From: a virus
Lineage: Duplodnaviria; Heunggongvirae; Uroviricota; Caudoviricetes
DNA: 64,000 bases
Reading direction: 5' to 3' (one strand)
Virus record (IMG/VR): IMGVR_UViG_3300042891_002054
Shown here: positions 10,171 through 14,400 of the stretch, one piece after another
Position numbering within the stretch: the first letter of the stretch is position 1
Layout of the letters: each line of letters opens with the position of its first letter
The notes under the pieces: generated by a model
Told to the model about the DNA's origin: nothing
Databases searched by the model: none
What the model saw: the letters and a program-made list of their open reading frames with translations, nothing else
Position numbers and translations under genes: made by a program

Positions 10171-10428
10171 TTAAATATTAATATTTAATGAAAGTACAGA
10201 ATCAATTTTGAAAGAACGCCAACCATTATTATCTAAATCCCAAACAGATAACACATTAGGATTTTCGGTTTTAATTACTTTACCCTCAACAATTTCAGTA
10301 ATAGGTAACACATGAGATTGTAAAGTGCATTTCATAACTCGTTCTGTACCATCAGTTTTAGTGAAAGTTACAGTACCAACATTATTTTGCAATAATTGTT
10401 TAATATCTTCTTTAGTGTAAATACTCAT
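10171..10428 (-). CDS. conserved T4-like SH3/WYL-like protein
   Basis: VTFTKTDGTERVMKCTL...VWDLDNNGWRSFK pattern typical of DUF2693/WYL_2-like phage proteins. Confidence 0.7.
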   Translation of the reverse strand: MSIYTKEDIKQLLQNNVGTVTFTKTDGTERVMKCTLQSHVLPITEIVEGKVIKTENPNVLSVWDLDNNGWRSFKIDSVLSLNINI

Positions 10429-11028: not shown

Positions 11029-11451
11029 TTAAAATAATTCTGGAAAAACTTCTTTGACTAAAGATTCTGTTAATCCTGGGATTTGAAGGTCTTTTTTCAT
11101 CATGTTGACGAAAACAACTGCTTCTTCAGGTTCAAATGATTCTAAAAGTTGTAATAGAAGAACATTACGTTTTTGTTCTGTTAATGTATCCGCTGTTGGA
11201 TCACCTTTTAAGAAAAGATAAACTCTACGAAGTTCTGACTCAAGACCAGCTAATCGAATTCCAGGAAAAGTATCGGGTTTGATATATTCTGTTGGAAATT
11301 CTTTAATGTAGAATTGATAATTTGGATTAAATGTATATTGTAATACTTGTTTAAAGTAATAGATATTATTTTGTTCAAGAATTTGTTTTCGTTGTTGATC
11401 GGTTTTAGCACCTTCAAATTCTTTTAAAATTTCATAAACGTTCTTGATCAT
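11029..11451 (-). CDS. conserved T4-like hypothetical protein
   Basis: LQYTFNP...LLQLLESFEPEEAVVFVNMMKKDL..PGLT..LVKEVFP, a family common in environmental T4-like phages. Confidence 0.75.
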   Translation of the reverse strand: MIKNVYEILKEFEGAKTDQQRKQILEQNNIYYFKQVLQYTFNPNYQFYIKEFPTEYIKPDTFPGIRLAGLESELRRVYLFLKGDPTADTLTEQKRNVLLLQLLESFEPEEAVVFVNMMKKDLQIPGLTESLVKEVFPELF

Positions 11452-11452
11452 A

Positions 11453-11611
11453 TTATTTTTTATTTAAGATTTCTGTTGATATTAAATCAATCACTAATTC
11501 AATTGATTCTCCTATTAATGTTGCGTTGGGCATCACTTTTAGCTGCCCTCTTCTCCATCTATTATAATCCCTTAAAGTTTCTAAGGCAACAATAATTTTT
11601 TGTCTATCCAT
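11453..11611 (-). CDS. 52-aa hypothetical protein (not in ORF track)
   Basis: MDRQKIIVALETLRDYNRWRRGQLKVMPNATLIGESIELVIDLISTEILNKK; AAGGA RBS; own promoter at 11637-11665. Confidence 0.65.
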   Translation of the reverse strand: MDRQKIIVALETLRDYNRWRRGQLKVMPNATLIGESIELVIDLISTEILNKK

Positions 11612-11636
11612 AATTAACATCCTTTTAATTTTATTT

Positions 11637-11665
11637 ATTGTATTATGAAATTCAATTTACGTCAA
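11637..11665 (-). promoter_or_regulatory. sigma70-type promoter
   Basis: TTGACG-17 nt-TACAAT. Confidence 0.7.
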
Positions 11666-11672
11666 TAGATTT

Positions 11673-11742
11673 CCGCGAAGCGGGTTCCCGAAGGGAACTA
11701 ATTTAATGCTTCGCTTCGCTCGCATCGCTTCCTTCGGAAGCG
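11673..11742. repeat. cluster of GNA-triloop mini-hairpins
   Basis: CCGC-GAA-GCGG, GTTCCC-GAA-GGGAAC, GCTTCGCTTCGC, CGCTTCC-TTC-GGAAGCG. Confidence 0.8.
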
Positions 11743-11762
11743 CATTTTTATATTTATCTTTT

Positions 11763-12066
11763 TTAAGGTTGAATAAGGCTATCCGGAGCCCAAATTCATT
11801 TTTTTAGAATAAGACAGGTATTTTATCATTATCAACCCAAGATTGGTTCTGCTGCTTTCCACACCTGTAGCGATTTTAAAGATCCTGCGCCTAATTGGAT
11901 CATCTCTTGTTTGGAGTGATTGATAATTTCATCTAGTTTCCTAGAAGTAACGAGGTGGTGTCTTTACCTCTTTTTTTCTTAGACAGAGCTATTCTACACA
12001 CTTTTATGGTGAATAGGTTATCAATACGATATCAGTCGGCGTATCAACCTTTATACAGACACATTT
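11763..12066 (-). ncRNA. candidate structured ncRNA (or origin transcript)
   Basis: No ORF of 60 aa or more; lies immediately downstream of TTGACT-17-TATAGT; the 5' AAGGTTGA pairs with the 3' TCAACCTT; several internal hairpins (see findings). Confidence 0.45.
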
Positions 12067-12071
12067 TCTTT

Positions 12072-12143
12072 ACTATATACTAAAAACAATTTTTAGTCAA
12101 GCACTAAATTGTACTTGACTATTTATATTCTATATAGTAAAAT
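12072..12143. promoter_or_regulatory. back-to-back sigma70 promoters plus an embedded minus-strand late promoter
   Basis: Minus: TTGACT(12100-12095)-17-TATAGT; plus: TTGACT(12115-12120)-17-TAAAAT; minus-strand TATAAATA at 12127-12120. Confidence 0.7.
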
Positions 12144-12161
12144 AAAATATTACGAGGTATT

Positions 12162-12476
12162 ATGATAACAGTAAAATCGAAAAATCACAACGGAGCAGAA
12201 GTTTTAATTAATGAAAACAATATCTTATATGCTGTTGCTTCCTATAATAATGAAACAATTGTTCATCTAAGTAAAGAATCGTTTTTAGTTTTAGCTGAAT
12301 CATTTGAAAGTTTTAAACAAAAATTTGAACCGCAAGTACAGCCAACAGTTTCTCACTATATTGCAGCAACTTCTAAACCAGATACAAGCGATTATCCAGA
12401 AGATCTACCTAGATTACCGAATGGGAATATTGATAAACGAACAACAGCTTATAAAGAGTATGTTGCGAATTTATAA
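12162..12476 (+). CDS. hypothetical protein
   Basis: 104 aa, GAGGT RBS; C-terminal LPNGNIDKRTTAYKE motif. Confidence 0.7.
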   Translation: MITVKSKNHNGAEVLINENNILYAVASYNNETIVHLSKESFLVLAESFESFKQKFEPQVQPTVSHYIAATSKPDTSDYPEDLPRLPNGNIDKRTTAYKEYVANL

Positions 12477-13584: not shown

Positions 13585-14400
13585 TTACGGGTGAGATGCT
13601 TTAATCCACCCTTTATAATTATTTTGTTCTCCTCTGTTAACTTTTAGCATAGAATTATATTGTAAATTATTTTCTTTGCAATATAATTTTAAATCTTTTA
13701 TTTCTACGATTTCGTTAAATGGAGATAAAAAATAAAATGTTTTTAACCTAGTTGATCTACATTTATTTTTGTGTTCTTGGGTTTGCGGAGGTTTTTTTGC
13801 GTTTCTCATTTTTTCTAAAGATTCTTGTGTATGATTTTTTCCAAAAAATGGATTATTTTCTCCAGATGTTGCAATAGATATTTTTCGTTTACTGCATTCA
13901 GTGTGATGTTTTCCTTTCATGGGGTTTTTATCTCCTTTCATTAGAGTCGATAAAATTTTCCTTCTTTCTTTCGATTTATTTGGGTTTTTATCTCCTTTAA
14001 TGTTATCTGATCGAATTTTTGATAAATTTAATTTTAAATCGGTATATACATAAGAATTTATTTTAAAATTTCTTTGTGGATTTCTTTTTATATTTGATCC
14101 ATTAACCATGCACCATAATGCACTATACATTTTTGTTTTATACGAAGATTTAGAAAATTTAATTAATAATAAATGGCATATATAATGTTCTCTTGCTGTT
14201 AAGATAACAATATTCGATTTATCAGTTTCTCCTCCCAGTTTAAATGATTTAGGTAATATATGATGTTTTTCTTTGTAATTAAAAACTATTTTTTCTTTTC
14301 TCGCAATGGCATTATTGATTATATTAATATACCACAAAAAATATTTATTATGTATTGAAATTTGTTTGAGGGTTTCGATATAAATATCTGTGCTGGACAT
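13585..14400 (-). mobile_element. free-standing HNH homing endonuclease with NUMOD3-like repeats
   Basis: EKHHILPKS...DKSNIVILTAREHYICH; NPMKGKHHTE..KRKIS and NPFFGKNHTQESLEKMR repeats; antisense insertion; AGGAG RBS. Confidence 0.88.

Follow-up and report, generated by a model that had tools for sequence, protein, structure and literature searches.

Background

T4 rnaC and rnaD (species 1 and 2) are stable, early, non-tRNA RNAs that are co-transcribed with, and processed from, a tRNA operon. The processive-antitermination RNAs put of HK022 and EAR of Bacillus are 70-120 nt long and act strictly in cis, and origins of the T4 oriF/oriG type have an AT-rich unwinding element downstream of a middle-mode (MotA-box) promoter. 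Large structured RNAs with a near-invariant core are uncommon; time and again they have proved to be ribozymes, ribonucleoprotein scaffolds or sensors. To our knowledge, no such RNA has been described in the T4-type phages, the best-understood group of phages.

Accessory genes of T4-type phages are shuffled by promoter-early stem-loop (PeSL) cassettes (Arbiol et al. 2010, PMC2839356), and the cargo described for these cassettes consists of small ORFan protein genes (PMC2839356). GOLLD, ROOL and HEARO (Rfam; see PMC12286853 and PMC5737381) are large, multi-helix, pseudoknotted RNAs with highly conserved cores, carried by phages or mobile elements and of unknown function when they were discovered.

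The locus analyzed here, on the minus strand of a 64-kb stretch of DNA (hereafter the window), is very probably a true gene for a structured RNA that belongs to a new family. It resembles GOLLD, ROOL and HEARO in its discovery by comparative analysis, multi-helix fold, highly conserved core and phage-borne location, and the pseudoknot is probable here as well. Unlike them, it is found in one T4-like lineage, is smaller than GOLLD and ROOL, does not match their models, and has neither a tRNA within the 64 kb nor an adjoining IscB-type gene. The new RNA family that it would represent has a promoter of its own, occupies a defined slot in the genome and probably forms a pseudoknot.

Genomic setting and transcription unit

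The source is an uncultured, AT-rich, T4-like phage whose genes in the window include those for topoisomerase II subunits, PhoH and a RecB-like exonuclease; in its relatives (cited below by L numbers) gp59, gp32 and gp33 adjoin the equivalent region. The RNA lies in a divergent intergenic gap of 541 nt (11621-12161), flanked on one side by a leftward ORF of 55 aa (11620-11453) and on the other by a rightward ORF of 104 aa (12162-12476). The first-pass annotation, made from the sequence of the window, had described the stretch as ORF-free and relatively GC-rich, which agrees with our finding of no ORF of 60 aa or more on either strand of 11621-12161 and a GC content of 0.35-0.39 in the gap vs. 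0.22-0.30 in the flanks. The unit comprises the following features, in the order of transcription of the RNA (no strand is given for the promoter inverted repeat and the hairpin cluster).

12120..12127, minus strand: TATAAATA, an octamer resembling T4 late promoters, upstream of the -35 box; present in some relatives, absent in others
12094..12121: inverted repeat, a PeSL-type promoter stem-loop whose arms are the -35 boxes (TTGACT) of two divergent promoters; seen in the sequence
12100-12072, minus strand: sigma-70-type early promoter of the RNA, TTGACT-17-TATAGT; seen in the sequence and kept in homologues
11762..12058, minus strand: conserved structured RNA core, type A, 297 nt; 338 bits with covariance model R1, and covariation
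11673..11742: GC-rich cluster of hairpins with GAA/UUC loops, a PeSL-type stem-loop downstream of the RNA; a homologous cluster occurs in every relative, type B (see below) included
11637..11665, minus strand: next early promoter, TTGACG-17-TACAAT, for the 55-aa ORF (11620-11453); in the window, L187 and type B loci

The near-consensus sigma-70 promoter reported earlier is confirmed, with a -35 box TTGACT at 12100-12095, a 17-nt spacer and a -10 box TATAGT at 12077-12072 on the minus strand, matching the consensus at 10 of 12 positions. Across four homologues the hexamers and the 17-nt spacing are constant and the spacer sequence is variable. Transcription would start at about 12065 (minus strand), and the closing stem of the RNA begins some 15-25 nt past this predicted start site. 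The other promoter of the 12121-12094 hairpin serves the 104-aa gene, and the GTCAAG...CTTGAC arrangement of the hairpin also occurs in relatives. An overlapping late promoter had been proposed in addition; the octamer TATAAATA is indeed present at 12127-12120 (minus strand), but only some relatives keep it and its function is doubtful.

In all relatives the core is followed by an A-rich, poorly conserved spacer of 25-75 nt and then by the hairpin cluster, which is the probable 3' boundary of the RNA (11742-11673 in the window). The cluster has no U-tract on the RNA strand, its first hairpin and a T-run forming a canonical terminator on the plus strand only. The copy at L022:3396-3462 gives a sub-threshold match to the Rfam family Gut-1 (26 bits vs. 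a threshold of 50, E 0.0075).

The organization is that of a PeSL cassette in several respects. A strong sigma-70-like early promoter is joined to a stem-loop, the -35 box lying inside the 12121-12094 hairpin; a second module consists of the hairpins at 11742-11673 and the promoter TTGACG-17-TACAAT; the two modules bracket a small accessory unit; and the region is mosaic (hyperplastic), with relatives differing by the unit replaced between the modules. The differences are that the cargo is a structured RNA of about 300 nt rather than a small protein-coding ORFan, and that the stem-loops, as putative terminators, are without a U-tract on the RNA strand. The locus indicates that the promoter/stem-loop cassettes which shuffle T4-type accessory genes can carry RNA genes.

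Searches for known RNAs

Among the 4227 models of Rfam 15 none matched the window at its gathering score, and at E-values up to 10 the region 11400-12400 returned only noise (at most 24 bits vs. thresholds of 38-80), in line with the earlier statement that the RNA could not be assigned to a family. Likenesses to SRP RNA, RNase P RNA and group I introns that had been seen by eye (GGAA...AGCAGC, AAGAGAUGAUCC) were rejected on account of misfitting local pairing, with nothing at E of 10 or below in the Rfam scan of 11400-12400. ARAGORN detected no tRNA or tmRNA in the 64-kb window. Searched by blastn against 50,697 GenBank phages, neither the type A nor the type B RNAs gave a match. An exact-pattern scan of species-representative bacterial and archaeal genomes yielded chance matches only, at about 14 bits; the RNA is therefore not a copy of a host RNA.

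Homologues and distribution

The annotation had suggested collecting homologues from the same locus of related phages and examining them for covariation. Such covarying homologues were found, giving a 10-locus alignment with 15 double-changed pairs. They were collected through proteins, by a search with the 104-aa protein, a second protein search and further contigs, and then with covariance model R1. L030, the first relative found, matches 360 nt of the gap at 76% identity, corresponding exactly to 12105-11759 of the window; the adjacent protein is only about 49% identical. Relatives found through the divergent 104-aa protein retain the gene order. Full-length copies at the same position were identified by R1 in the window, L081, L082-84, L086, L088, L089, L090, L030 and L187, and contig-truncated copies in L070, L085, L087 and L188-190. 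L055/L081, L070 and copies of the phage of the window itself came from pattern scans. The 64-kb window holds a single type A RNA and no paralogue according to R1. Scans of IMG/VR with two conserved words recovered only the window's own phage and L055, and in relatives reached through the DUF6433 protein (46-65% aa identity) the neighbourhood differs and similar DNA is absent. The contigs stem from the IMG samples 3300032296, 3300033571, 3300045544 and 3300043099. As far as these sequence searches extend, the RNA is confined so far to a small, uncultured lineage of T4-like phages from fresh water.

A more distant relative, L007, carries an array of 12 tRNAs (L007:470-3520, plus strand) directly upstream of a 142-aa gene and the DUF6433 gene, and it is the slot of this array that holds the RNA cassette in the window's lineage. 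The presence of a tRNA array upstream of the DUF6433 gene in the equivalent slot is a point of likeness to T4 rnaC and rnaD, as is the predicted nature of the RNA, a small to mid-size stable early RNA of a T4-type phage. It differs from rnaC and rnaD in having its own promoter, in the absence of tRNAs from the 64-kb window and in its lack of similarity to GenBank phages.

Structure of the conserved core

The RNA of about 300 nt with multiple hairpins that the annotation had proposed corresponds to a core of 297 nt (12058-11762), delimited by the covariance model and by covariation. Its elements, all on the minus strand, are listed from the 5' end.

11982..12051, minus strand: 5' domain, holding the 5' strand of P1 and helices P2, P3a and P3b
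12051-12046, minus strand: P1, 5' strand of the closing stem
12045-12040 with 12028-12023, minus strand: P2, compensatory changes, 100% pairing
12022-12019 with 11985-11982, minus strand: P3a, compensatory changes, 100% pairing
12016-12011 with 11994-11989, minus strand: P3b, compensatory changes, 100% pairing
11970-11966 with 11956-11952 (region 11932..11970), minus strand: hairpin P4, three pairs changed on both sides
11945-11941 with 11936-11932, minus strand: hairpin P5, invariant stem with a loop of varying length
11927-11918 with 11837-11828 (region 11828..11927), minus strand: helix Px, AUUAUCAAUC/GGUUGAUAAU, 10 bp, covariation
11911-11905 with 11814-11808, minus strand: P6, AACAAGA with UCUUAUU, candidate pseudoknot strand, doubtful; C-A mismatch in the window and L187
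11901-11897 with 11885-11881, minus strand: hairpin P7, inside Px, one double change
11880-11838, minus strand: near-invariant block of about 43 nt inside Px, from the alignment
11867-11861 with 11821-11815 (region 11808..11867), minus strand: P8, CAGGUGU with AUACCUG, candidate pseudoknot strand, invariant
11765..11797, minus strand: 3' domain, with P10a, P10b and the 3' strand of P1
11797-11794 with 11774-11771, minus strand: P10a, GAAU with AUUC, covariation
11790-11787 with 11780-11777, minus strand: P10b, the other part of P10
11770-11765, minus strand: P1, 3' strand of the closing stem

The structure model tested has 69 pairs in 12 helices. On the 10-locus alignment, which contains about eight distinct sequences of 75-96% identity (five of them 85-96% alike) and was fitted to the structure model, a bias in favour of the structure, 95.2% of the cells pair. 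Changes on both sides were found in 15 pairs, compared with 6.2 +/- 1.6 in shuffles, and none of 500 shuffles reached as high a count; sliding the partners by 1-3 columns left 0-6 double-changed pairs. Earlier versions of this comparison agree. Covariation is distributed over helices P2, P3a, P3b, P4, Px, P7 and P10, and P5 and P8 are invariant. With three sequences, RNAalifold already gave 11 compensated pairs. G-U pairs occur in all sequences, e.g. in P2 and P8, and since the opposite strand would have A-C mismatches in their place, the minus strand is the RNA strand. Insertions and deletions of 1-4 nt either lie in loops or have a compensating change on the other side of Px, a pattern incompatible with protein coding.

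The first-pass annotation had listed nine hand-identified pairings, all of which exist where they were placed, and seven of the nine are upheld on the homologue alignment. The AACC/GGTT hairpin gives way to Px, because its GGUU segment belongs to this covarying 10-bp helix (AUUAUCAAUC/GGUUGAUAAU): in L070 and L187, where GGGUU has become GGAUU, the Px partner has the matching change of C to U, and the substitution would break AACC/GGUU. The terminal stem retains a conserved GGUU/AACC core, but the rest of it is not conserved. Nor is the GNRA loop (GAAA) a constant feature, relatives having loops of 6-8 nt in its place.

Px is a long-range helix that surfaced when L070 joined the alignment; it has three double-changed pairs, compensated 1-nt indels and 100% pairing. 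It encloses the block of about 43 nt, which is almost free of substitutions among sequences that are 75-80% identical overall. The invariant pairing CAGGUGU/AUACCUG (P8), if it forms, would cross Px and so make a probable pseudoknot. P6 (AACAAGA/UCUURUU) is doubtful owing to the C-A mismatch in the window and L187. Near the 3' end a CUURUUC segment occurs twice (11814-11806 and 11779-11771), the R of both copies covarying with the Y of GAAY; both copies and the complementary GAAY change together in the window and L187. Judged from its sequence, the duplication around GAAY could allow two mutually exclusive pairings beside the closing stem.

Folding energy does not distinguish the RNA from shuffled controls, with z-scores of -1.0 (346 nt), -1.1 (core) and -1.25 (a homologue) and 11-15% of the shuffles doing equally well. 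The insignificant z-score would fit a stretch with no function, either the remnant of a decaying gene or a spacer that looks conserved because the phages diverged recently, and the absence from the window of the 119-132-aa gene that relatives have next to the RNA means that deletions do happen here. This explanation is nevertheless extremely unlikely and has been largely refuted already by the covariation. The RNA is also conserved above the level of the flanking genes, tblastn finds no remnant of the 119-132-aa protein in the window, and in relatives the RNA lies upstream of the intact gene.

The annotation had also considered a T4-style origin R-loop transcript. An R-loop primer of the oriF/oriG kind, or another signal at the DNA level, would account for a strong promoter directed into non-coding DNA at a point where transcription diverges, with palindromic hairpins nearby. 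Against this, the compensatory changes and the G-U asymmetry reflect selection on the intramolecular pairing of one strand; the transcribed stretch has a GC content of 0.35-0.39 vs. 0.22-0.30 around it and no AT-rich unwinding element; the promoter is of the plain sigma-70 type, with a canonical -35 box TTGACT and no TGCTT (MotA) box at -30; and sister phages retain the flanks but have another structured RNA between them. Given the selection on RNA pairing and the relatively high GC content of the stretch, an origin is very unlikely, and the R-loop proposal is not favoured. It is the main proposal of the annotation, a structured phage RNA outside known families, that the results sustain, through covariation in seven helices, the conserved promoter, the strand evidence from G-U pairs and the lack of an Rfam match.

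Mosaic context and alternative RNAs

In comparisons of related loci the identity of the RNA differs from that of its surroundings. Between the window and L082 the flanking genes are 87-100% identical at the nucleotide level, the RNA 79% and the 104-aa gene 63%, and between L082 and both L081 and L089 the RNA is 93-95% identical and the flanks 72-88%. From these identities the RNA moves as a cassette, and within its main clade it is conserved more strictly than the proteins next to it.

In some relatives other RNAs take the place of type A, so that types A, B and C alternate at one position. Type B (L022, L025, L026 and L069) is ORF-free, conserved, about 400 nt long and located behind the same kind of promoter; it has 11 compensated pairs in three sequences. 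B2 is a diverged form (L183-186), and types B and B2 together cover a length range of about 400-480 nt. Type C, a third form in a 700-nt gap (L067:346-1045), looks unrelated. The type B and type C relatives had no match in Rfam.

L022:3490-3905, minus strand: type B RNA, supported by covariation of its own
L025:3440-3910, minus strand: type B RNA, likewise
L069:190-600, minus strand: type B RNA, likewise
L184:1390-1865, minus strand: type B2 RNA, the diverged form

Types A, B and B2 share a 5' end of about 40 nt, consisting of AAAGGUUG followed by the covarying P2 hairpin with a loop of the CCGAYUG type. At the 3' end, too, they are laid out alike, with two copies of a 7-nt strand on either side of a complementary tetramer (CUUGUUC...GAAC...CUUGUUC in type A and CUUCAUC...GAUG...CUUCAUC in type B). 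The full type A model gives type B 6.8 bits and type C 3.6 bits. A model of the 5' domain finds the correct start in four of four type B/B2 RNAs at E-values of 0.1-0.6, with one off-target match scoring equally; homology of the types is therefore probable rather than established. A bolder proposal is that A, B and B2 have diverged from each other within a single new superfamily of pseudoknotted phage RNAs of 300-450 nt, with a common 5' module (closing strand and P2 hairpin) and a common 3' module whose duplicated strand permits two conformations, and that they are swapped as a fast-evolving weapon or decoy against a host factor or defence system, or that they represent a new ribozyme; we regard this combination as unlikely. 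The occurrence of alternative RNAs in one slot of related phages points to an accessory, possibly host-directed function.

Leader or independent RNA

The main rival reading makes the RNA a cis-acting leader, either a riboswitch-like sensor or an antiterminator resembling put or EAR, that controls read-through of the hairpins into an early operon running from the 119-132-aa gene and the 52-aa gene through DUF6433 to the topoisomerase. In five type A loci (L082, L089, L030, L081 and L086) no sigma-70 promoter was found between the RNA and the next gene on the same strand, that of 119-132 aa, and the RNA could therefore be a long leader there. A MotA-type middle promoter upstream of the 123-aa gene could not be fitted either, with spacing judged by eye. 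A leader would also be consistent with the stable hairpin cluster that always follows the RNA and with the alternative pairings open to the duplicated CUURUUC and GAAY (CUUCAUC and GAUG in type B). Like put and EAR, the RNA is placed directly after an early promoter and before stem-loops and an operon, but its core of 297 nt, the second promoter after the stem-loops in some loci and the absence of an Rfam match at E of 10 or below set it apart from them.

Several observations weigh against a leader. The promoter after the hairpins is near-consensus in the window, L187 and the type B loci, and its position directly after them makes the downstream genes independent of read-through in these genomes. 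The RNA also persists where the adjacent gene has been lost, since the window and L187 are without the 119-132-aa gene, retain the RNA and have the strong promoter after the hairpins. Furthermore, the A-rich spacer of 25-75 nt between closing stem and hairpins is poorly conserved and offers no conserved alternative pairing, the RNA strand has no U-tract terminator, and the core matches no known aptamer in Rfam. We consider the leader possible but rather doubtful, and favour an independent trans-acting RNA because the RNA is kept without the adjacent gene, is followed by a promoter in several loci and is swapped like an accessory gene.

Proposed mode of action

The explanation that we prefer as a whole, a separate, early-expressed structured RNA gene that acts in trans through its invariant core, is reasonably probable on the comparative evidence, and the narrower claim of a trans-acting RNA that binds a partner is tentative. 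On the preferred explanation, the RNA polymerase of the host, with sigma-70, would initiate at about 12065 (minus strand) early in infection. The core folds into about ten helices, comprising the short closing stem, five hairpins on the 5' side (P2, P3a/P3b, P4 and P5), Px and a 3' hairpin; Px encloses P7 and the near-invariant block of about 43 nt, and the 3' hairpin is stacked on the closing stem. The GC-rich hairpin cluster (11742-11673) is presumably where transcription ends or the RNA is trimmed. The product may be a stable, trans-acting RNA whose core, probably pseudoknotted with the segment 3' of Px, binds a protein or nucleic acid or is catalytic. Lying between two promoter/stem-loop modules, the gene is exchanged as a cassette by related phages, and its role may be an accessory one in host interaction rather than in core replication. 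Complements of the conserved single-stranded blocks and loops, as sought for antisense targets in the window, were no commoner than expected by chance.

Catalysis would suit a multi-helix RNA with a probable pseudoknot and about 43 consecutive near-invariant nucleotides, features that bring it closer to catalytic RNAs than to simple regulatory sRNAs; the near-invariant, pseudoknotted core would then be the active site of a ribozyme that processes itself or acts on another RNA. No ribozyme family matched even at E-values up to 10, however, no conserved cleavage-site context was found, and a protein-binding site explains the invariance equally well, so that we judge a ribozyme to be distinctly improbable.

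Neighbouring genes

In most relatives the RNA and the 52-aa gene are separated by a gene of 119-132 aa (L082:1557-1928, L030:277-648 and L022:2946-3335, all on the minus strand), and tblastn with its protein detected no remnant in the window. The C-terminal part of the protein (GVYFNS...Y.ILL......QQHFG.Y.T.E.AE) has no Pfam match; by eye it looks like an AP2-type DNA-binding domain.

Further downstream, a gene with a WYL_2 domain (window 10171-10428, minus strand) is 100% identical at the nucleotide level to L082:81-338, and the RNA, 1.5 kb away, is 79% identical. On these identities there is a sharp recombination boundary between this gene and the RNA.

A homing-endonuclease gene (phrog_655) is located between phoH and the exonuclease gene of the window (13585-14400, minus strand). 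In relatives such as L082, L025 and L089 a PD-(D/E)XK gene follows phoH directly, with no endonuclease gene between them, and the phrog_655 gene looks like a free-standing endonuclease insertion.

The 104-aa protein encoded on the other side of the promoter hairpin (12162-12476, plus strand) belongs to no Pfam or PHROG family and had no tblastn match among the 50,697 GenBank phages. Its N-terminal half and linker are fast-evolving. The C-terminal motif YPxxLPRLPxGxVDKRTTAYKEY is nearly invariant in 18 of 18 relatives, and the protein may be a short docking peptide.
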